From: Octopus vulgaris
Taxonomy: Eukaryota
DNA: 64,000 nt
Reading direction: 5' to 3'
Assembly: GCA_951406725.2 (NCBI GenBank)
Contig: OX597831.1
Coordinates: 83,514,001 to 83,578,000, forward strand
The notes under the pieces: model-generated
Told to the model about the DNA's origin: nothing
Seen by the model: the letters and a program-made list of their open reading frames with translations, nothing else
Databases searched by the model: none
Shown here: positions 1,619 to 58,505 of the stretch, one piece after another
Position numbering within the stretch: the stretch's first letter is position 1
Layout of the letters: each line of letters begins with the position of its first letter
Program-made: the position numbers and the translations under genes

Positions 1619-1632
1619 TATATATATATAAT

Positions 1633-2284
1633 TATTTAACAATTAATTATCAGGTAGATAGCGTGAAAAGACTAAATTCCTTTTTAAATGTCTTGCTTTG
1701 GAAAAATTGCATTGGGTATGATTAGTAAAATTTTTTGGTAGAAATGACTAATGTCCCTCTTAGCGTGTGACATGTATGTGTAATAATGCCCTCTATATAT
1801 AAATTAATATGTTCAATAAGAAAGAATTATTTTCGAAATTTTTCTCCTATGAGGTTTTTCACGCTATCTATCTGATAATTTCTTGTTAAGATTCCTTATT
1901 AAGAAGTTATCCTTAATTGTTAAATAATTTTATTCCGAAAAAACTTTTCCTATCCGAAATGCAATTCGAAGAAGCCTGCCATTTACCGGATGTATTATAT
2001 GTAAACTTCCCCATGTGCGTCGTTGGGGTTGAACAGATAGCTGTTCGGCTTTGACGGTACAGGTTCGTTTATTTATGATGTGTTCAGAATCAGTCTTGCT
2101 GATGAGTACGGTCGAATCTGCGATAAGTACGAAATCACAGGTGATACAAGACTAAATTCCCTTTTTTAAATGTCTTGCTTTGGAAAAATTGCATTGGGTA
2201 TGATTAGTAAAATTTTTTGGTAGAAATGACTAATGTCCCTCTTAGCGTGTGGCATGTATGTGTAATAATGCCCTCTATATATAA

Positions 2285-2290
<6 letters not shown>
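1633..2290 (+). mobile_element. Retrozyme-like element: ~480 nt unit plus ~140 nt terminal redundancy and a short 5' inversion
   Basis: 1668-1810 is repeated at 2148-2290. 1633-1667 is the reverse complement of internal segments near 1855-1880 and 1914-1925. Contains a full hammerhead, sits in (TA)n, and has a homolog at 42217-42735. Confidence 0.75.
2092..2153 (+). ncRNA. Type I hammerhead ribozyme with intact core
   Basis: Stem I AGTCTTG/CAAGACT, core CTGATGA (2099-2105), stem II GTAC/GTAC, GAAA (2131-2134), stem III TCAC-ag-GTGA, NUH triplet AUA. Predicted cleavage after 2146. Confidence 0.85.
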
Positions 2291-3759: not shown

Positions 3760-3960
3760 TGACCTCGTGTGTACCATTGGCGACTTTTTTCCTCTGTCTT
3801 CTCTTCTCTGGATCTTTCCTTCTCCTATGTTTCCGACGAAGAGCTCCGCTCGAAACGTTAAACCCTCCTTCTTCCCTTCTTTCCTGAGCGTCCAATAATA
3901 CTTTATTTGTTCCACGTCCTTGCGTTGTTGTGTTTTTCTATTTTATTGTTTGGATTAACT
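3760..3960 (+). mobile_element. ~200 bp dispersed repeat with minimal hammerhead motif, copy 2
   Basis: Homolog of 1430-1618. GTTT-CCGACGA-a-GAGC-tcc-GCTC-GAAA-CGTT-AAAC at 3829-3863, with (TA)n on both sides. Confidence 0.7.
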
Positions 3961-4809: not shown

Positions 4810-5310
4810 CCTGCCGATGGGGTTACCCTGTGTTTCACACCCATCGAGCGCTTAGCTTTACAGCGTTTCTTCAGACCTTTCAGACCCCATGGTCTTTTTA
4901 GCAAGTGGCCTCTCTAGAAAATGAAGGAGGAAAAGACTTCGTTACTTCGTCAACAAAAAGGGATTGTCTCTTCTGACCGCTATTAGTTGACCATGTTGGT
5001 TTGTGAATCCCAGGGCAATAGCAGGAATTTTTTGATGTGTAAGCAGCATACGAAGGCCTCCGCCCTGGAGTTAAGGATGTTCCCGGGTCGAGGGAGTCCT
5101 GTGATATCCTCATCCGGTTGGCTATGCACAGTTTACAACGCTCGAACCCATTTATATAGGGGCCTGGATTTTCTAGGGTCTTCCATGATATTACGTGTGA
5201 AGTTCTTTCAGCCACCATACATGGCTGGCTAAGGACGTAGCGTATCTCCTTTCTGGAATTCTGAAAGAGGATCTGTGGTTGGAGAGGCGCTGTTTGAACG
5301 TGTTACCGGC
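4810..5310 (-). mobile_element. Penelope-like element 3' fragment (GIY-YIG C-terminal region plus 3' UTR with degenerate HHR)
   Basis: TFKQRLSNHRSSF...TSLASHVWWLK and ISWKTLE..PY....RCKLC match PLE endonuclease C-termini. HHR-like motif at 4821-4877. Confidence 0.7.
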
Positions 5311-5519
5311 ACCAACAACAACAGTAGCAGTAGCTTCAACAGAAACAGAAACAAAATCACCAACACCTGCACACGGTGGCACATCGGACGTTCCGGTTGC
5401 TGGTGGAGGGCAATGCGACGAGGCTTTTTGAATTAAGAGAGCTCCCGCTGTTTTCCAATATATGGTTGAGTCGGTGGGATGGTTGAACTGTCGAAGCACC
5501 CGGCTGTGTGCACATAAGA

Positions 5520-6560
5520 ATCTCAGATGGAGAAATTTTGGAATGTCTTACAAATCTTCACTGTGCTACTAATAGACTTGATTTGTCAGTTCTTTTTGCT
5601 CTTTTTCCATATAACCGAATATTTCTAAGGTTTTGAGCAAATGTGTTGGTACATAACATAATGCATCCATGGTGATAGGTACAAATGAGGATTCATAATC
5701 ACGGTACAAGAGCCGTAAGTTCTGCATTAATCCGCCAGATGTCTTTCTCCTAGACTTTTCACCGAACATTCACATCTGCTGGGCAGCTGTCCTCTGCATG
5801 ACTCTTGTTCCCTGTGTCACAGAGAAATATCAGGTTTGTTACGTTTGCACCGCACTGATGCTTTTATCGGGGTGTTCCACCATAAATCTTATTCCTTGTT
5901 TTTAAAGGTGTGGATACCTTCTGGTTCTGACATGTCTTTAATGTATACGTCAGGGTAATCATTCCAGCAGATAGCATTGTAAATAGCCTTTGCAACTAGA
6001 TCAGGCCTCAGGGGTAAGCAGTAGACATTTTGGGGTAGCTGTTGATGATGTGGTCGATATCTTCCACACTGGTATAGCAGAGCCGACATCTTTTATCATA
6101 ACGTGGAGGTTTGATGATATCTTTGTCTCTCGCTATCCTGTTCCTGGATAGCGATGGCATATCGTTCTAGATGGGATGTAATATATTTATCACAAGTCCA
6201 GGAGAGGTTACTCTTCCTGTCAATACTGCTGATGTCTTCTATCTTGTGGGATATGTACCCAAGCATTGCTTTTTGTGGGCATAATACCTGCTTCTTTTCC
6301 AAGCTTATGTTTAGGTAGGTCAGCCCAGTCCCCTTTGGGTTGCATGAGACAGTTATATTCTCAGAGTACATGCACAGTAATTCTCCAATTCTGTAGATGT
6401 TGCCTTCACTTTTGGGCATGCATAGACTGTATTAATTTCTTTCTCTATTGTTCAGCAGGTGATGTCTACGAGATACAATGCACATTCAAAGGCTGTTTAG
6501 ACTGTCATCTCTTCGTCTCACATAAATCTTATTAGTGTCGCTGTTAATGTAGAAGTTACC
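5520..6560 (-). mobile_element. Decayed R4/Dong-like non-LTR retrotransposon (restriction-like endonuclease end)
   Basis: Frameshifted pieces AIAIQEQD, VAKAIYNAIC, WNTPIK..RCKRNKPDI and FVPITMDALCYVP resemble an RLE-clade C-terminus. Confidence 0.6.
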
Positions 6561-27203: not shown

Positions 27204-30200
27204 TTACAGATTTATGCTTAAAATAGTGTCGTCTTTCATACTGACCATTTTTGCCACTTTTACCCACTTTTTATTAAAACATTCGTTCGACACAGCCTTC
27301 CTCTCTATTCTCATCCTCCTTTTCAAGTGGTACTTGAAAAAGTTGACGAGAGATTGACCAGAGAGGAAGGTGTTTGTTTGCAGTCTTTTCAAACGCGTCC
27401 ACCACACACATTCTTTCGCCATAGCCATCAGCGTAACGAAAACCGTTTTCCCTTCCCGTTTAAAGGAAGGTGGTGGAACAATATTCACGATAGACTCGGC
27501 CGATAGGTGGGCCCGTCCTACACGCGACAACAGCTGTTCGACGAAGGTCCACAGCTCTAAAATATCTGGACACTGCACGTGTGCGTGCAGAACGGTTTCG
27601 TCGCTCTGACCGCATCTCGGGCAGGTCGGTCCGGTGATGGTTTTCGAACTGTGCCTGTAGCTCTTCTCTCGAACAGGTAGTGCGTCTCGATAGCATTGCT
27701 AAGCCAGGGATTTCTGGAAGTTATTCATAGGCCCCGGCCCGAACGTCGTCCTGAACAGGCGGGTTAAGAATTTCTCGTCGACGCCCAGGTTTGCCCCGAG
27801 TGTGTCGTCGGACCTCCCCTCCACTAGTCCTCTATAGAACGCTTTAGTCGTTTGTAAGATGCACAAGTTTGACCCCGGGCGGCAGAGCCGCTGTAGAGCT
27901 TGGCGACACTCTCGGTGCCAATCGCCCAGTTTCAGTCTCTTCTTGATCCACGTTTGCAGTTCGGTCAGTGAGACGAGTTGCAGGAAGGCACGCCTCACAA
28001 ATGGCGCCCACACCTGTTCACCGTCGTCGATGAAGTTCCAGAGATGTCGCAGTCTCAGCGCATGCCTGCGCATCATCAACCATGGCATGCCCAGTCCTCC
28101 ATTCAACGGATGTTGACAGCAAATAGATCGCCTCACCATCGGAACGCCACCCTTCCACAGGAAGCGGAAGAGTATGCATTCCAGTTTGGTGATGGTGACG
28201 TCGGGACAAGGCACGACGGTCAGGCGGTAATCGATGACGGATGCGATGTACGCGTTCGCCACCTCCACCCGGCCTTTTAGAGACAGCAGTAGCGGCTCGA
28301 GAGTCAATACATACAGAAGCGCCGACAGGGGACACACCTGACGGACCGAACGCGTGATGTCAAACGGTTTCGACAGGTGGCCGTTCACCCGAATCACCGA
28401 TCGGATGCCGCTATACAAGGCAGCGATCCAACCGCGGAAGACGGGACCGAAGCCAGCCGCCCTGAGGACGGCCGCCAAGTACCGATGGTCGACCCTATCG
28501 AAGGCTTTAGACTGATCCAAATTGATCAGCGCCCCACCCATGCCAGGATCCTTAACTACTCTGTTCACAATGTAGCGCATCAGATGGAGGTTGTCATGTA
28601 TAGTTCTGCCGGGCACGGCGCATGTTTGCGCCCTGTCGATCAGTTTACCAATCACAAGCGCCAACCTCTCGGCTATTACTTTGGCCAAAATTTTCAAATC
28701 TGCGTTGAGCAAAGTGATGGACCTGAAATTATTTATAAAATTTCCCTTGTTTGGGTCTTTCTTCAGCAACGTCACTGCATCTCGGCTCACGAAACCGGGG
28801 ATTCTCCTGTTTTGTTGCCAGTTGCAGTAGACTGATGCCAAGAGGTCGCCAAACAAGTCTGGCATTTGACAATACAGCTCGTAGGGTAAACCATCCAATC
28901 CAGGCGACTTATCCCTCGCGCAGCCCGCCATCGCATCCCGCACGTCAGCGACTGTGATGGGACTTTCACAACACTCCGCTTCTCTTGCCGAGAGCCGCGG
29001 CAGGTCGGTCAGGTAGGCACTGAAATCCATCCTGCGTTTCGACCAACCGCTCACACCAAACAGTCGAGCAAAGTGCTGGTGAAAGGCCTCACACATCCTT
29101 TCGGGCTCGAGTAAACTGCATCCCTGTTGATCTATTAGAGACCGAATGGTGGCTCTGTTGCCACGCTGCGCCTCCGCTACCCGGGCCTCTCGCGCAGCTT
29201 CGATCTCTTCGTTCCTTAACGCACGCATTTTAACTCTGACGACGCAACCTTCGTGCTTGGCGTTGAAGTGTTGGTCAAGGGCCATCCTCGCAGCCAGCAC
29301 GTTGGTTGCGCTGCCAGTGGTAAGTGCCTCTTCTAGCTTCTTAACCAGGTCTCCCTCTACTCTGTTTCGATCTATCGCTAATTCCTTGCTAAACCTAATT
29401 GATTCCGATTTTATTGCCATTTTCAGGGCGAACCCCCAGAGGTTGTTAACGACGGCTCCTGCAAGCGCCCTCTTAATTAACTCGCTAATCCGGTTCCTGT
29501 AAACCTGTCGCGCTAAGAGCGACGTGTTCAGTTTCCAGTAACCGGGACCCTGTCTATGTGTCTTATCTAAGTCGAGCGTACACGTCACAAATTTGTGATC
29601 TGTGTAGCTGACTGTTTTAAATTGTGGACATCCTACACTATCCCTATCCGCTGTCCTGCATAGAATTCTATCTAGATAAGATCTCGACGATCCGACGCGG
29701 TTTGTCCAAATCCACGTTGGCACGTTCGGATGGTCGAGTCGGAACCTGTCAGACAAATGGAAACGTCTGAGTAGGTCTTTGAGGCACTTACACCCCCTTC
29801 TATTCCTATCCATTCCCACATAATCTAGATGCGTGTCCAAGGTAGCGTTCCAATCCCCTACTAACAGTAAAGGTCTAGACGTACCCAGGAAAACCTCTAG
29901 ACGTCTGAAGAAATCCGCCTGACCCGTTAAGGACGGTGCATAAACTGCCATCAGACAGAATGCACACCCATTTCTGCCATCCACGTCCAAGACAACCAGC
30001 CTACCCTCCAGGTCTAGGAATATTGTTCTTACTTTTACATTTAAGCTCTTTCGAAAAAGCACCGCGGTACCTCCACCACCCATGTTCGGCAGACAGGGAG
30101 AAAAATAAATGTCGAATTGATCTCCAAACATGGACGCGAGGGCCCGCGGCTTGCTGAGTCTGGTTTCACTGATAGCTACTATATCCACATTCAGTGACTT

Positions 30201-30275
30201 GATGTCGTTTAGAAGGTAACCTTGCTTCCAAGCCGACGCCAAGCCACGCGCATTCACACAACCTAATTTAAGCAT
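27204..30275 (-). pseudogene. Tx1 ORF2: APE endonuclease, reverse transcriptase and Cys motif (defective)
   Basis: CVNARGL, ISETRL, GDWNA, SYLDRI, TDHK, YWKLNTSLL, DQSKAFDRVDH, QVCPLS and CPRCGQSDETVLH. The YADD segment is missing and there is a stop at 27699. Confidence 0.92.
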
Positions 30276-30344
30276 AATTGACGTTTACGAAAATTGTGTT
30301 TCACACACTACATTGGAAGAAACAAGAGGCAAGAGGGAAGGTCA

Positions 30345-41658: not shown

Positions 41659-41721
<63 letters not shown>

Positions 41722-42160
41722 GGAAGGGGGGAGGTGATTTACTTTCATTCACCCTTTGAATTCGTTGGTACTGGTAAGGCTCACGCTCGCTCTGATACCA
41801 TGAGTTGAGGTGATGTCTTCTAGTGCCTTCAAATTTAATACACAATTATTAATAATTGAGACGCAATTATTTATAATTGAAGAATCCTACGCTGAGGAGG
41901 AAAATAGTCAGGTAAGACATAATTATTTAATTTTTATGCTCTGAATTGACTTGATTCCGAAACGTACGTCCGTAGGTGACTTAATATAGAAAGATTTCCG
42001 TCATTTCTTTCTCTTTTGCCTGCGTAGTTTGTTTTTTAAAGTGCTTTGGTTTTACTGGGATCGCCCTTTTAAGTAGAAAGAATAGCCAAAACTTTTTGAC
42101 TGCTATTTCTAAATTCGGTATGTGGTGAGGCAAATCGTTGCTGAACCCCTTAATTAATTA

Positions 42161-42216
<56 letters not shown>

Positions 42217-42220
<4 letters not shown>

Positions 42221-42733
42221 TAAAAATAGGATAAAATCTTAATAAGAAATTATCAGGTAGTTAGCGTGAAAAACCTCATAAGAGAAAAAATCTGTAAATT
42301 TTTTCACTTAAAAATATTTATTTATATTATATAGAGGGCATTATTACACATAAATGCCACACGCTAGGAGGGACTTTTAAAGTCATAACTACCAAAAATA
42401 AACAAATCGTACCGAATGCAATTCTCGAAGCGAGTCATTTAAAAACAGAATTTAGTTCCAGATCACCTGTGATTTCAAAATTAACGTATTATCTATGTCT
42501 CTTGCTCTTTAGTGAAACGAATTCAAAATATATCATGAATGAACAAAACCAACATACCAGGCGGAACCAGACAGACAGCCGTCGCCTCCATCCTAGCACA
42601 TGAAAATGTTCACCCCTCATATATTTATGTAAATGGCGGGCTTTTTCGAATTGCATTTCGGTAAGAAACGTGCTTCTTCGGAACAAATTAAAAATAGGAT
42701 AAAATCTTAATAAGAAATTATCAGGTAGTTAGC

Positions 42734-42735
<2 letters not shown>
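42217..42735 (-). mobile_element. Second retrozyme-like copy: 468 nt unit plus 51 nt terminal redundancy, degenerate HHR
   Basis: 42217-42267 is repeated at 42685-42735. Homologous to 1633-2290. HHR at 42455-42518 (GTTTCA-CTAAAGA...GAAA-TCACAGGTGA-TC-TGGAAC), flanked by (TA)n. Confidence 0.75.
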
Positions 42736-42795
<60 letters not shown>

Positions 42796-47317: not shown

Positions 47318-47949
47318 GAGATGAGGAATTATGTACATTATTTACATTTAGCGGATATTTGTCCTCGTTTTGTTTGTTTCGGCTGATATACCTTCCAGCC
47401 TTCATCAGGTGTCTTGGGGAAATTTCAAACCTGGATTCTCATTCCTAAGGTATTTTTCGATGTTGTTTTCATTATTATTATAATTATTATTATTATTATT
47501 CAGGTTACTGCCTGGAATTGAACTCGGAATCTTGGGGTTAGTACCCCGCACTCTTAACCACTACGCCATATGCTCGTGGTCAATTATGGAGTGAATTTTA
47601 GGGCTTATAAATCTAATATTCTCCTATCCTTCCTAAAAACCGGTTCCCATATGCTGTTCATATCTGTACTCGGTCTGCTTAGGAGGTTGTTGAGACCTAG
47701 CATATGTGCTGATGCTTTTAGTTTTCGCATTTTCCAGTGGTGTTCCCTGTCTATTATCTTAACTTCATCCCACAGAGGGAGGTGGTCTCCATTTTTCCAT
47801 ACATGATCAGCTATAACCGATTTATCAATATCTCTCCGTGTCACAGCTTTGCGATGTTCCTCTACCCTTATTTTAAGGAGGCGGCATGTTTCGCCTTTAT
47901 ACAACCTACCACAGCTGCATGGGATGGAGTACACGCAGTTCTTGGTCAT
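47318..47949 (-). mobile_element. Penelope-like element 3' end: GIY-YIG endonuclease, tRNA-like sequence, (AAT)n, HHR remnant
   Basis: ORF 47605-47949 CVYSIPCSCGRLYKGET...RVEEH...IADH. tRNA-like sequence at 47503-47575. HHR at 47376-47412 lacks its cleavage-site segment. Confidence 0.88.
47503..47575 (-). promoter_or_regulatory. tRNA-like sequence / internal Pol III type 2 promoter
   Basis: TGGCGTAGTGG A-box, GAGTTCAATTCC B-box, and anticodon-arm-like GGGG-TACTAA-CCCC. The acceptor stem is imperfect, so it is not called a functional tRNA. Confidence 0.7.
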
Positions 47950-49922
47950 ATGGGAGTTTCAGGTTATCCTCTCTTCCGAAGTGGATTAACTCAAATTTGT
48001 CTTCGTTCTTTTCCGACCATTGGATGACAGCCAGTAGATCTGACTGAAGGCATGCCCGGTCATCCAGTTCATTGATGACCTTGTGGATCTTGGAATCATC
48101 TGCAATGATTTTTGTTACTATGCTTGATGTCAGTAATGTCATTGATATAGAGGAAGAAAGGAAGTGGGCCTATTGACTTTGGCTGGGCTTGATTTCAGTG
48201 TCTTCCCGTTCTGGCATTGGTGTAGCTTTCAATGCCAAAATTTGGCACAAGTCCTTCCAGGATCTTCCAGATGTATATTACTGCACACCTCTCCCACCTT
48301 CTCTCCAGGGAGTAGAACTTTAGCTGTTTCAGCCTTTTCCAGTAGCTGAGCAGTTGCAAAGAGACGATCTTCTTTGTGAATCTTCTCTGGGTTACTTCAA
48401 GGTCCACTGTTAATTTTACACTGGTGGGTGACCATAGCTGTGAGCAGTAATCCAGGCGGCTGAGGACGAATGGCTTCCAGAGGACCATCATGGTTTCCTT
48501 ATCTCTGGTTCTGAATGTTCTCAGGATCCATTTAGCCAGTCGTCTGCACTTTGTCGCGATCCTGGTAATGTGTACTTGAAAGAGGTATCATCACTTATGT
48601 TGATACCCAGGTCCCTCACTGATTTAGGCTCTGGGATTGAAATTCCCTGTGGACCAGTGTACCCTGTAAGTTCCATATTCAGTTTCGGACGCTGGTAGCG
48701 CAGGGCTTGGAATTTTTCAGCATTAAACTGCATATTATTATCCTCAGCCCATCTGTAAATTGAGTCCAACACCTGCTGCAGATGTGCAATATCGCTGGAG
48801 TTCCGTATTTTCTGAGAGACTTTCGTATCATCTGCATAGCTTGCAAGGGGGGGGGGGTATCCGGGCACTTGAGAGCATATCTGAGAAGGCCACTATAAAA
48901 AGCAGAGGTCCCAAGACAGTGCTCTGTGGAACACGGCTCACTATTAGTGTTGTCATAGAGGTGGCTCCATCCTGACTACAGCCTGACTTCTATCTTTCAG
49001 AAAGTCATGTAACCACTCTCCAAGTTTTCCAGCTATGCCGAGATCATACTTTGTCAAAAGCTTTTGCAAAATCAAGGTATATTACTTCCACATTTGATTT
49101 GTTGAGTAACTGCCTCAACACCCAGTCATAATGCTGGAAGAGCTGGGTCAGGCAGCTCCTACCTGGTCGAAAGTCATGCTGTGTATCACTCAGCAAGTTA
49201 TTTTCTTCAAAGAATGCGATTAGTTTCCCTCTGACTATCCGTTCCATGACTTTGCAGATGTGGGAAGTCAGAGAAATAGGCCTATAGTTTTTAGCATCTG
49301 CTCTGCTTCCCCCTTTATGGATTGGGCATATAATTCCCTCCTTCAGCTTGCTTGGCAGTTTGACATTTGCAAGAAAGCTCTGGAAGAGAATCTGGAGGGA
49401 TTTTGCCAGGGCATGCTTACACGATTTGAAGAGGATTGCTGGGAAACCATCAGGACCAGCAGTTGAGTTTGTGTCCACTTCATCTATGGCTAGTAGAATA
49501 TCTTCTTCGCTAATATCGATGTATTCCATTGTAATTGCCTCGCTGGTTATAGGTGAGGCGGCAAAGAAGTCCACTGGTTCGTTCACTTGTCTGTGTTCCA
49601 ACGGGGTGATAAAGACACTTTTGAACTGGTCATTCAGTACCTCACTAATCCTAGTTGGACTGTCTTTGAGGGAGCCATCCTTTTGGAAGAGGGGTCCTAT
49701 CTTGCAGCGTACTGAGGCTGTTTCTTTCGCGTAATGAAAGACGGCCTATGGGTTTGATTTAATGTTTTTTATAAGCCAGGCTTCTTTGTCTGCTTTCTCT
49801 TTCACGTAGGATTGTTGCAGGCTTTTTTCAATCTCCATCAGTGTTGTTTTTAGGCAGGACCTTTCGCTACTTTGGGGATGTTGGTTGAGTCAATTTGCAA
49901 CCTTCGTCCGTCGGCTCATGAC
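47950..49922 (-). mobile_element. CR1-group LINE ORF2 fragments
   Basis: AGPDGFP, NYRPISLTSH, YLDFAKAFDKV, YADDTKV and SRLDYCSQLWSP. A separate ADDSKI piece lies at 47950-48150. Confidence 0.9.
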
Positions 49923-52685: not shown

Positions 52686-55632
52686 ACGTAGGAGGGCTAC
52701 TGCGCGGCAACTGTAAAAGGAAAATCTCATTCCTGAGAGAGCTTGTGACGTGCAATCAAGCTATATGCATGGCACTCACAGAAACGCATCTTGGACCCGA
52801 TATAGGGGATGCAGAAATACACATACCGCAATATGCAGTCATACGCTCAGATAGAAAAGGGAGGAGCCATGGTGGAGTTGCAATGTACATCCGAGATGAC
52901 CTCACGCTCCAGGTCCTGTTGTCATATTCAAACTCAGTGTGTGGCACTCAAATCGTACACATAAGACAACTGAATATCGTCATATGCACTACATATCGCC
53001 CACTAGATGCTCAAAATCACCCAGGCATGTTTGAAGACTGCCTAGCATAAATAGAAGAAGTCCTCACCAACCTTGAACAACACAACAGTGTATTCTTCAT
53101 GGGTGGCTTTAACTTCCCCAATGTGGAATGGCCTGGGGGCAGATACTCTCAGGGATGACACGCCATCAGCAGGCACAGGCAGAGTCCCTGCTCCATCTCA
53201 CAAATGCCTCTTTCATGGAGCAAATAGTTCTGCAACCAAAAAGGGCAGATAATATACTGGATCTCTGCTTCACAAACAATATGGATATTATCCATAATGT
53301 TAAAGTGATGCCGACAATGATCTCGGATCACAACATAATAGAGCTGTCTATGTATGGACCAAAAGCCCCCGTAGACATACAGCCTATACGAAGCATCCAC
53401 CATCTCTCCAACTTAAACTTTCATAAAGCAAACTGGAAGTTGATTGAGAAAGAGATCCTCAAACAGGATTGGCCTAAATGTCTCTCTACACCGGACGTTA
53501 ACATGAAACACAAACACTTCATGTCCATAATACAAGCCATATGTGACAAATACGTCCCAGTGTACAGGGCCAGCACACACAAAAACAAAAACAGGATCCC
53601 TAGAAAAAGGAGGATTCTTATGAGACGACGGAAAAGGATTGCGAACCGCCTGAGCAAGCACACCAAAAGTGGTGAGAAGTCTCGGCTCGAGAGAATGCTA
53701 GTGGAAATTGAGAAAAGTCTGCATCAATCCCATGAAAAGGAGAGAGCAGATAAAGATGTTTGGGTAATAGAAAATAGAAAATCAAAGCCTAAAGCTTTCT
53801 TTAAGTTTGCCAAAGAGACAGCCACAGTGCACCAGAGAATAGGACCTCTCTTCCAAAAAGATGGATCTCTAACAGGAAATCCCACGAGGATAAGTCAAAT
53901 ACTGAACGAACAATTCCAAAGTGTGTTCACTACACCTCTGGGACACAGGCAAGTAAATAACCCAGAAGAATTCTTTGCCACTTTACCTGCGGCCAAAGAG
54001 GCAAAAATTGAGTACATCAACATTGAAGATGATGATATCACACTAGCCATAGATGAGATTGACACAAACTCAGCTGCTGGACCTGATGGGTTTCCAGCGA
54101 TCCTGCTCAAATCGTGCAAACGAGCCCTTTCAAAACCGTTACAGCTTCTTTTTCAGAGCTTCCTCGCAAGTGGTAAGCTCCCAGTCAAATTGAAAGAGGG
54201 GGTAATATGCCCTATCCATAAGGGAGGTAGCAGAGCAGATGCTAAAAACTATAGGCCTATCTCTCTGACCTCACACATCAGCAAAGTCATGAAACGAATA
54301 GTCCGCAAGAAACTAATCATGTTCCTTGAAGAAAATGACTTCCTGTCTGACACCCAGCATGGATTTCGACCAGGTAGAAGCTGCCTAACACAGCTCCTGC
54401 AAGAATAATGACTGGGTGTTAAAACAGCTACTAAATGGCTCAAATGTGGATATAATATATCTCGACTTTGCAAAAGCCTTTGATAAAGTCGACCATGGTA
54501 TTATATGTCACAAACTGCGTGGTCTCGGCATAGGCGGAAAACTTGGAGAGTGGTTGCACAACTTCCTAAAAGGCAGAAGACAGGCAGTTGTGAGCAATGG
54601 AGCCACCTCCAAGGAAACACAAATAACAAGCGGTGTTCCACAGGGCACTGTCTTGGGGCCACTGCTGTTCATAGTGGCCCTTTCAGACATGCCTTCAGTT
54701 GCTACGATGGCCACCCTTGCTAGCTATGCAGATGACACAAAAGTCTCCCACACAATACAAAACACTGAAAATATTGCACATCTGCAACAGGAGTTGGATA
54801 CAATATACAGGTGGGCTGAGGACAACATGCAGTTTAATGCAGGTAAGTTCCAGGCCCTGCGCTACCCGCACACAAAGGTAAACGACATGCAGACTGGATA
54901 CACTGGCTCAGGAGGAATTGCAATCCCTGAGTCAAAATCAGTGCGTGACCTGGGCATTGACATGAGCAATGATGCATCTTTCCAAGTGCATATTACTAAT
55001 CTGGTGATAAAATGCAGACGGCTAGCTGGATGGATTCTCCGAACTTTCAGAACAAGAGAGAAGGAGACACTGATGGTCCTCTGGAAAACATTCGTCCTCA
55101 GCCGCTTGGACTACTGCTATGGTCACCACACAATATAAAACTAACAGCAGAACTCGAAGCAATTCAGAGAAGTTACACAAAGAAAATCGTCTCAATGCAA
55201 AATATCAGCTACTGGGAAAGACTGAAAGTATTAAACCTCTTCTCCCTAGAGCGGAGGCGGGAGATATATGCGGTGATATACATCTGGAAAATCCTGGAGG
55301 GTCTTGTCCCAAACTTTGGCATTCAAAGTTACCCAAACCGCAGAACGGGGCGCCACTGCATGGTGCCAAATATTCCAGCATCACCATCAAAATACAGGAC
55401 CAGATACTGCAACAGCTTGAGTTTCAGAGGACAACAGTTCTTTAACATCCTCCCTAAATGCTTAAGAGACTTACATGGTGTGGATGTGGGTTTCTTTAAA
55501 ACTAAACTGGATCTCTTCTTGTCGGGAGTCCCAGATGAACCTACCTCACGACAGGAGACGCAGATACGGGCAGCAGCATCGAACTCCCTTGTTGATCAAG
55601 TGCCACGCATCAGAGGTGGATTCACATATTAG
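52631..55632 (+). pseudogene. CR1 ORF2 APE endonuclease / reverse transcriptase (disrupted)
   Basis: LTETHL, RSDR..HGGVAMYI, LDLCF, SDH, DFAKAFDKVDH, GVPQGTVLGPLLF and YADDTKV. Stops near 53050 and 54408, and a frameshift near 55120. Confidence 0.93.
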
Positions 55633-55953
55633 TGTAGCTCATTCAGCGGTGGTGCCCCAGCATGGCCGCGGCCTTCGGGCTAAAACATTTTTAAGGATTT
55701 AAGGATATACATACATACATATACATGCATATATATATACATATATATATACATACATATATACATACATATATATACGTTTATATATTTGTTGTGCAAG
55801 ATTTTTTATGTGAAGTCGTGTGTTGAAACAGATATTGTTGTATTTTGGAATGGTCATTTTGCCAGTTTAGCCAATAAAAACACACGCACTATATATTTGG
55901 TGTTACTTTGCTTCAATGTTATTTATTTTTTACATTAATCTTAATCTTATTTC

Positions 55954-55998
55954 GGCCAGAGTTCTTTCGTCACACTCCTGTGACCGCATCAGTGGTCC
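55954..55998 (-). ncRNA. Variant hammerhead-like motif
   Basis: GGACCA-CTGATGC-g-GTCAC-aggagt-GTGAC-GAAA-GaaC-TC-TGGCC. The A9 position is C. Confidence 0.5.
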
Positions 55999-56309
55999 TT
56001 TGTTTTCTTCTCACTTATTTGTGTCTCTCCTTACTAACCGTCAGCCATTTTGTATTTCTATTGTATGTCTTCATTTGTGCATGCTTATATCTCTATGTGC
56101 GTTTATGTTTATTTAGTGTGTGTGGGGGGGGATGCCTGTAATATTTGTATCTTCTGTTTATATAAGTTCATGTAATTTGTTTTTGTTGTTGTTTTTGTTT
56201 ATTCTTATTTGTTCATGTGTTTACATCCTCTTATTATTGTTATCATTACATATACTTGTATGTATGTATAACAACAATACTAGTAATAACAATAATAAAT
56301 CAAAAAACT

Positions 56310-58505
56310 ATAGCTAGGACCAAACTTAGAAAGATTTTAGGACTATACACTAAGAGACAGAGACAGAATAAGACAGAGGCCCAACAACTCGGGATTAAAC
56401 CTGCATGTGGCCTACATAAGCTCATTCAGCGCACGAGGAACGGAGAGGTGGTATGCCTTCCCACAGATAAGTCCGGCAGGATGTCAATAGGCAGCTTACC
56501 GAACTACATCCAGGCAATGCAACCTCATATTGCCAATACAAAAATAACAATTTTACAGGCGCATGAGGAGAGAGAAAAGGTCCTCAACGCCCACATGATG
56601 ATGTGGACAACTGTTTTGGGACCCTACAAACGTACAGCAAACAATTTCCAAGCCTGGAACAATGATATCCCGGCACTGTATGGACTTCGCAAGGACCATA
56701 AAGTAACCACTGACCCTATAGCAGGACCACCAACAAGACCAGTCTGTGGAGCGAATATGGCTTGCAACTACAGAATCTCCTACTTCCTCTCAATGATCAT
56801 ACGCCCTATAATCCGGATGTCACATGATGTTTGTGATAGCACAGAAGATCTCCTCAGCAGGATCAATGACTGTAACAACACTTGTGACCTGACAGCATGT
56901 ATGGTGGGTAGCATGGATGTGGTATCCCTATACCCATCGATCGACGTAGATTTTGCGGTGGAGAAGTGCGTGGAGATGATCAACGAGAGCCAGGTGGAGT
57001 TCCGTAATGTCAACACAGAGGAACTGGGCCTCCTACTTAGACTGACATGTGACAATGAATACCTAGATAAGCATGATCTTAGTAGTTTTTGCCCCAGTAG
57101 ATGTTTAAGAGGTAGACCGCCCACAATTACTTCTATGGCTAGGAAGACCCAAATAGAACGATGGCGCGGATGGACCAGAGCCATACGGAGCCCCGCAAAT
57201 GTCCATCAGGTAAAGAAAATGATCGCACATGCACTAGGAGCTAGTATAAGAGTTACTCTCAAAGGCCATACATTTAAGTTTAACAATAAAATATATGCCC
57301 AGGACGAGGGGGCAGCCATCGGTGTTAGTATCGCTGGTGATGTGGCCAACCTTTTCATGGTATGGTGGGACAGAAGGCTTAAAGAACGCCTAACACAGAA
57401 CTCCATACTCGTAAACATGTACTCTCTCTATGTTGATGATATCAACATAGTGGTAAAGGCACCCCCACAAGAGAGTACTGTTGATATAGTAATAGAAACT
57501 AATACTATGGAGAGCATCCAGCAAATAGTTAACTCCATCCACCAGAGTATAAAGGTCACAATAGACTACCCCACTAAACACCCCAACCATAGACTACCAG
57601 TACTAGACACTGAACTCTGGCTAGAAATTGTGAATAATAAAACCCAAACACTTCATTTGTACTATGCCAAACCTATGGCCTCAAAATACTTGATCCACCG
57701 GGACTCAGCCATTGCGGACAATGCCAAATTCAATATTTTGATGACAGACCTCGTCAGAATAATGAGAAATGTGTCACGCATGTGCGAGCCTACAGAGTTA
57801 AAGAGACACATACAATATTTCATTCACCGCATGCAGTTCTCAGGTTACAGCCATAAAGAAAGGATCAGAGTATACAAAGGAGCCATGAAGAAATTTGATA
57901 ATATATTATGTAATGATAGGAATGGGATTTGACCACTCTATAAGAACAAGTCATGGAACACTATAGAAAGGACAAAAAAGAAAATAGGGAAGGCCAACTC
58001 TTGGTATGATAGCCATAAATACCAGAGTGTCATGTTTGTTGACACCACCCCTGGAGGTGAACTGGCATACCGCTTTAGAAGGAACCTAGACAAACTTAAG
58101 CTAAGGATTAAGGTTGTTGAAAGGCCAGGCAACCCTATCAAATCTATAATCGATAGAACCTATCCTTTTAGTAGAACCCCCTGTACGGATAAGTACTGTA
58201 CTGTATGTAGATTTAGCCCACAAACAAACTGTAAAGCCAGAAATGTAGTCTATAGTATAAGATGTATAGAGGGACGATGCAGTAACAAGACAATGACATA
58301 CGTAGGGGAAACGGCAAGAAGCATAGCAGAGCGGGTAAATGACATATGAAAGAACTCAAGGAAGGTAAAAACTCATCGATTCTGTAACAACACGCCGAAC
58401 AGGAACACGGGGGATCAATCAACAACATAGAAATTAAAATATTGTCCACACATAGAACAGATGCAACAATCAGACAAATTACAGAAGCTACACACATAAT
58501 AGAAA
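56310..58505 (+). mobile_element. Penelope-like element, RT plus Cys-rich linker plus GIY-YIG (5'-truncated)
   Basis: PTDKSG, YGLRKDHK, RPV, SMDVVSLYPSID, QDEGAAIG, YVDD, LPVLD, then C..YC.VC and VVYSIRC...YVGET.RS..ER. In-frame TGA at 57930-57932 and later lesions. Confidence 0.92.

Follow-up and report, generated by a model that had tools for sequence, protein, structure and literature searches.

The closest described counterparts of the elements reported here are the animal non-LTR retrozymes, short, non-coding, low-GC units that contain a canonical hammerhead of type I (helix I of 6 bp, helix II of 4 bp) and are predicted to fold stably; they form tandem arrays, accumulate as circles and co-occur with Penelope-like elements. 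The accessible parts of the literature give their unit length as 170–400 nt for invertebrates in 2020 and as 51–972 bp in a preprint (10.64898/2026.07.22.740005), which argues that they are non-autonomous Penelope derivatives and by whose criteria, as far as its available text goes, single-ribozyme copies would count as monomer derivatives. According to the accessible accounts of the published retrozyme model, the template is a monomer circle: circles accumulate, and cDNA of more than one unit has been proposed (PMC7229834, PMC7761336). The plant LTR retrozymes described in the same two papers are non-autonomous, hammerhead-bearing elements with terminal repeats; in the available descriptions they carry type III hammerheads in both LTRs, PBS/PPT and 4-bp target duplications. 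Penelope-like elements, as presented in the accessible text of PMC8557442, PMC3846280, PMC11167929 and PMC4209133, leave partial tandems and inverted 5′-truncated pieces at (TA)n targets, with 5′ ends that vary, alternative 3′ ends located downstream of a minimal hammerhead, and a 30–40-bp tail.

The two octopus loci examined here, A and B, share with animal retrozymes each of the unit properties named above and the co-occurrence with Penelope-like elements, and their unit (468–480 nt; GC 32% in A) lies within the range of the preprint while being longer than the figure of 2020. They differ in lying dispersed rather than in tandem arrays, as a 1.3-mer (A) and a 1.1-mer (B) that each contain a single complete ribozyme, and the accessible retrozyme descriptions mention neither (TA)n targeting nor inversions nor a pair of fixed 3′ ends, all features of the A/B family. 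Since no two-ribozyme locus was seen and RNA circles lie beyond the reach of the DNA sequence and contigs from which the family is known here, we do not class A and B as retrozymes proper. Compared with Penelope-like elements, the family shares the partial tandem, the inverted 5′-truncated piece, the (TA)n target, the variable 5′ ends and, as far as seven ends suggest, the alternative 3′ ends downstream of the hammerhead, whereas it has no ORF, its hammerhead is canonical with a 4–5-bp helix III rather than minimal, and its 3′ sites lie about 125 nt apart, as against the tail of 30–40 bp in the accessible descriptions. The likeness to plant LTR retrozymes extends to non-autonomy, the hammerhead and terminal repeats, but A and B have a type I ribozyme, placed outside their terminal repeats.

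Two permuted copies of one unit

The window, that is, the whole 64-kb stretch of Octopus vulgaris DNA that was analysed, contains both loci. Locus B lies on the minus strand, a strand that the original prediction had left unspecified. The parts of the two loci and their surroundings are as follows.

1630–1669, minus strand: 5′-truncated inverted piece of locus A, equivalent to A positions 1856–1929 with an internal deletion of about 34 nt
1668–2290, plus strand: direct copy of locus A, a unit of about 480 nt with a 143-nt repeat (1.3 units); its 5′ end lies 1–3 nt after the predicted cut, and its 3′ end lies at the first recurrent site, an internal TATA-rich run, against (TA)n
2093–2152, plus strand: intact type I hammerhead motif with 6-bp stem I, CTGATGA, 4-bp stem II (2106–2109 / 2127–2130), GAAA and helix III
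42162–42216, no strand: (TA)n tract at the 3′ end of locus B, bordered at its far end by a hammerhead-bearing element unrelated to B
42217–42735, minus strand: locus B, a non-coding 468-nt unit with a 51-nt terminal repeat (1.1 units)
42217–42267, minus strand: 3′ copy of the 51-nt repeat, ending at the second recurrent 3′ site (A-equivalent about 1930), against (TA)n
42412–42661, minus strand: predicted rod enclosing hairpin and ribozyme, with arms 42661–42645 and 42429–42412
42455–42518, minus strand: degenerate type I hammerhead, with stem I formed by 42518–42513 and 42460–42455, a near-palindromic helix III and a predicted cut after C42461
42526–42626, minus strand: long hairpin just 5′ of the ribozyme, with a structural match at A 1988–2085 (about 60% identity)
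42685–42735, minus strand: 5′ copy of the 51-nt repeat, starting at the equivalent of A position 1861, unit position about 195 after the cut
42736–42794, no strand: (TA)n tract at the 5′ end of locus B

The minus strand of locus B aligned with locus A in two blocks, 42735–42314 with A 1861–2292 at 70% identity (score 346; 300 shuffles gave a mean of 30 and a maximum of 50) and 42456–42230 with A 1671–1926 at 77% identity. These two alignments indicate that A and B are permuted versions of one unit, offset by about 195 nt, in agreement with the original prediction of a single family with permuted units (70–80% identity overall). The 51-nt terminal redundancy with a period of 468 that had been described for locus B was recovered as an exact match between 42217–42267 and 42685–42735 (0 of 51 sites differ, upper 95% bound 5.7%). 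Both loci exceed the length of one unit, and the claim that the template was longer than a unit is also supported. The terminal repeat of locus A is 143–145 nt long (1668–1810 / 2148–2292; 97% identity), its copies differing at three places, and at the internal unit junctions of A and B no bases are lost or added. Within locus A, the inverted piece and the direct copy meet head-to-head through a common AA, and the 3′ end of the inverted piece faces (TA)n. We regard the reading of A and B as copies of a mobile hammerhead element as well supported. No third copy of the family was found within the 64-kb window.

The 5′ ends of the A inverted piece (1856–1861) and of B (42735) lie at most 5 nt apart in a conserved predicted helix, which perhaps marks a stall site of the reverse transcriptase (RT) or a unit boundary. 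Around the inverted piece (1633–1676), run X3 showed the form without the hairpin of about 34 nt at high depth in organism B, and the DNA run of organism A left it uncovered, hinting at a deletion subfamily.

The ATG ORFs of locus B comprise only 55 and 41 aa, in a frame that is not kept in A. An ORF start common to A and B was rejected as coding, as it opens 31 and 55 aa, respectively, in diverging sequence. The window contains no tRNA gene. Exact-pattern scans gave no match in metagenome contigs, prokaryote genomes or viral contigs; a single viral match (L001) was rejected, its alignment to A being at chance level (scores 39 and 47). No description of such a family in cephalopods was found in the literature searched (mostly open-access main texts, without Repbase or supplements), and the words "ribozyme" and "retrozyme" are absent from the accessible main text of a 2026 octopus repeat annotation (PMC13282606).

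Hammerhead motifs and predicted fold

The hammerhead motifs were found by a custom descriptor scan, the relaxed form of which (it misses B) gave four matches in the window against 0–2 in eight shuffles; Rfam reported no hammerhead family, whether for the window or for either locus. The cut in locus A is predicted after A2146. In locus B, the core reads CTAAAGA, with A at the G5 position (42510), and the G10.1–C11.1 pair that closes stem II is missing, so that the defects noted in the original prediction, which had called this copy probably dead, are both seen. A G5A change inactivates hammerheads. Judged by its sequence, the B ribozyme is probably inactive, and it may already have been inactive at the time of the B insertion.

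Stem I is formed by GTCTTG/CAAGAC in A (2093–2098 / 2147–2152) and by GTTTCA/TGGAAC in B. Three of the six pairs are changed on both sides, one is changed on one side to give a G–U pair, and two are constant, which reproduces the three compensatory changes and one wobble of the original prediction. When the seven substitutions were placed at random with the observed spectrum, all six pairs were kept with a chance of 0.011, while a shuffle control of stem I gave 66 of 500, the floor for two rows in a comparison of two sequences only. Across the whole fold, covariation between the two sequences was borderline (p 0.066 and 0.050): changed pairs were kept in 21 of 31 and 21 of 34 cases, where 16.7 and 16.5 were expected, and the number of double changes, 5 of 8 in one case and 4 of 6 in the other, did not exceed the null. 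Maintenance of the ribozyme fold by selection in the ancestors of the A and B copies is supported, and to this extent the earlier claim of selection stands; its extension to "both lineages" assigns more than two sequences can.

Position 2096 was C in 61% and 84% of the contig depth in two DNA runs. The matching G in the 3′ arm of stem I occurred at one contig end from run X12, the pairing with the 2096 C being suggested across molecules rather than seen on one. Since the T–G pair of stem I in B is one step from this contig-suggested C–G pair, the wobble may represent decay from C–G.

The 15-mer GAAATCACAGGTGAT is identical in A and B, as are three further blocks of 17–22 nt; its proposed invariance applies to these two loci and does not extend to the contig ends, which carry other helix III loops. 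Helix III is near-palindromic and forms no hairpin alone, and its intermolecular pairing is predicted at −10.2 kcal/mol. We liken this pairing to the hammerhead dimer model in the available text of PMC4209133.

Folded as circles, the units gave MFE z-scores of −4.54 (A) and −3.61 (B), and their antisense strands −2.81 (A) and −2.18 (B), with 40 shuffles each. The hairpin 5′ of the ribozyme had z-scores of −2.96 in B and −2.26 in A, and the 5′ arm of the predicted rod has the same sequence in both loci.

Insertion ends, (TA)n tracts and copy number

Contigs were compared with locus A as the only reference in 4 of the 24 listed runs, the RNA status of X10 and X12 being presumed. Two DNA runs from two organisms yielded 1070 and 1098 contigs matching locus A, which indicates that the family is high-copy. 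None of the matching contigs spans the whole unit; one from X12, with a depth of 185, reads across the cut site.

One 238-nt contig of X10 (record 13, presumed RNA run) covers 1901–2127 with 38 differences, mostly T>C on the plus strand. The X10 run contained 31 T>C and 7 A>G changes in total, compared with 15 and 14 in the DNA runs (p 0.016). This T>C excess suggests that an antisense transcript underwent A-to-I hyper-editing; on the 21 listed sites, the neighbour and G–U-site tests were not significant (p 0.10 and 0.12).

All four outer ends of A and B adjoin (TA)n. Among the 24 loose-end rows listed (of 203), five continue into (TA)n. One of them shares its 3′ end with B and three share theirs with A (X10 after 2281, X12 after 2281 and 2287), while the fifth is a 5′ end, with its start at 2097. 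The 3′ ends of B, of the A inverted piece and of one X10 contig lie no more than about 2 nt apart, in front of (TA)n. Taken together, the seven known 3′ ends, whose contig members come from the 24 of 203 rows listed, define two sites about 133–141 and 263–265 nt past the predicted cut, and in those listed rows all four 3′ ends into (TA)n fall at one or other site. Two of the three contig ends at the first site are pure TA to the end of the contig. Since the first site lies in a TATA-rich run inside the unit, its ends may be due to TA microhomology, to slippage or to breaks in the assembly.

The 5′ ends, in contrast, vary, with unit positions 2, 190, 195, 431 and, weakly, 66. Counted from the predicted cut, the A direct copy begins at 2 and B at 195, and they end in the following unit at about 141 and at 265, respectively; the A inverted piece covers 190 to 263. 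A 5′ end within 1–3 nt past the predicted cut, as in A, has a chance of about 1% for one locus by rough estimate. The head-to-head inverted, 5′-truncated piece is present in one of the two loci (A), and a weak contig joint with 22 letters on its short side was seen in X3.

The original prediction had read the two loci as permutations of one circle and had held that fixed termini shared by all copies would speak against this. We found termini that are fixed in part: the 3′ ends cluster at two sites and the 5′ ends vary, which differs from free permutation. The 5′ end of A at the predicted cut is, moreover, what is expected for run-off on a cleaved linear multimer, and partial tandems, inversions, internal starts and (TA)n targets have been described for Penelope-like elements without recourse to circles. 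The single circle is thus not supported in the form in which it had been proposed.

Other hammerhead-bearing pieces occupy the same TA tracts as A and B. Two related pieces of about 190–200 nt between (TA)n tracts (1423–1616 and 3760–3959, plus strand) carry a minimal hammerhead-like motif and, on inspection by eye, resemble Penelope-type repeat ends; the piece at 1423–1616 has a TA tract in common with locus A. On the plus strand at 41720–42161, a second element of about 440 nt between (TA)n tracts has one tract in common with locus B. It contains a type I hammerhead-like motif (41886–41976) with the core CTGAGGA, a long stem II and a palindromic helix III, and has no terminal repeat; its homology with A or B was ruled out (alignment scores 33–40).

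Template and mobilising enzyme

We consider it probable that the family is a non-autonomous, Penelope-type, retrozyme-like element that is copied from linear multi-unit RNA and inserted in trans by a Penelope-like RT and endonuclease. A and B display the insertion features of Penelope-like elements, namely pseudo-terminal repeats (51 nt in B, 143 nt in A), a head-to-head inversion (in A) and a (TA)n target; the accessible text of PMC8557442 and PMC3846280 presents (TA)n targeting, the partial tandem and the head-to-head inverted piece as Penelope-like anatomy. According to the available part of PMC11167929, the Penelope-like RT of a lizard element starts in vitro at two internal sites downstream of the hammerhead, and cleavage is dispensable. 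A gene of the corresponding kind lies in the window.

56166–58505, plus strand: broken gene for a Penelope-type RT with a C-terminal GIY-YIG-like end and a CX4CxxC linker, interrupted by a stop

The best homologue of this ORF is an Octopus vulgaris protein (93%). Its GIY-YIG-like end was assigned by motif reading and by Atlas neighbours, of which only 13–21% of members carry GIY-YIG, and Pfam detected no GIY-YIG domain in the gene. The CX4CxxC linker has been proposed to direct (TA)n targeting, as far as the available text of PMC8557442 goes. Within the 64-kb window, no DNA similarity was detected between the gene with its flanks and A or B. The gene shows that the genome has a driver of the right kind, which is not to say that this gene is the partner, and the failure to find an autonomous partner in the window counts against the preferred reading.

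Upstream of this gene and in the opposite orientation, a minimal hammerhead-like motif with the core CTGATGC (55780–56005, minus strand) is possibly an inverted repeat of the gene. Two minus-strand pieces (4898–5547 and 47605–47958) resemble Penelope-type GIY-YIG ends by eye and have no Pfam match. The window also contains LINE remnants with AP-endonuclease and RT matches at 27699–30284 (minus strand) and 53113–55632 (plus strand), and a further remnant at 48196–49919 (minus strand) with BLAST similarity to the latter.

Under the preferred linear multi-unit template, a tandem source locus would be transcribed into multi-unit RNA, which the hammerheads would cut only partly, probably as dimers formed through the near-palindromic helix III. 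The endonuclease would nick a (TA)n tract, and reverse transcription would begin internally, at either of two favoured positions about 135–140 or about 265 nt past the cut. The RT would then pass an uncut ribozyme, continue into the preceding unit and either stop early, as may have happened in B 51 nt beyond one unit, or run off at a cleaved 5′ end of the RNA, as in A. Two fixed starts combined with variable stops would thus give the appearance of permutation. The distance of about 125 nt between the two 3′ sites, beyond the described tail of 30–40 bp, counts against this scheme, as does the fact that neither of the two loci contains two complete ribozymes, so that the tandem source is hypothetical.

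A possible but doubtful alternative is that a Penelope-type RT copied a monomer that had cleaved itself and been closed covalently into a circle by a host ligase, going round for more than one turn from the same two internal starts. It needs no tandem source, and it agrees with the length of both loci and the scar-free read-through of the cut site; the stable predicted folding of the units as circles and the abundant X12 contig across the cut site are explained equally well by this template, even though contigs cannot reveal circularity. An endless template, however, does not account for the second-pass stop of A at the cut site. Once copied, the junction would lie in an RNA:DNA hybrid, and Penelope-type RTs are not known to have an RNase H. 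The B ribozyme, furthermore, looks defective although the B repeats are identical. We prefer the linear multimer because A stops at the cut on the second encounter and not on the first, and because the repeats of B are identical while its ribozyme carries several defects.

Linear self-cleaved monomers could also have served if the RT, having started internally, reached the 5′ terminus and then switched to a 3′ terminus, either of the monomer being copied or of a different one. The structure of A is exactly what such a jump predicts, with 143 nt joined at the cut site to a full monomer that ends at the cut, and two template molecules would allow for the three differences between the A repeat copies and for the deletion that separates the inverted piece from the direct copy. 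The internal junctions of A and B nevertheless show no lost or added bases, and three differences in 143 nt also fit ageing after insertion. We regard the jump as quite improbable. Movement as DNA, through extrachromosomal circles from a tandem array or recombination between TA tracts with the ribozyme as a passenger, has very little to commend it as an explanation. Tandem arrays can yield permuted ends and short terminal repeats, and target-site duplications would be unreadable in (TA)n, but this route does not account for a 5′ end located where the RNA is cut, for the head-to-head inversion, for 3′ ends that are fixed while 5′ ends vary, or for the covariation of stem I.

The kind of element and its link to Penelope have already been published. 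In the A/B family, which is dispersed and high-copy, a canonical hammerhead unit occurs together with insertion scars of the Penelope type. The mobilising enzyme of animal retrozymes and the circularity of their template are still argued from co-occurrence and phylogeny in the accessible literature, and because the family is dispersed and high-copy with insertion scars, a genome-wide table of its ends would test both questions cheaply. It is rather unlikely, though conceivable, that thousands of dispersed copies record Penelope-type reverse transcription of a ribozyme-made RNA circle from two fixed starts for more than one turn, with subfamilies that move with a dead ribozyme. If this were true, the ends of the insertions would for the first time show directly, from the genome, how animal retrozymes move and whether cleavage plays a part.
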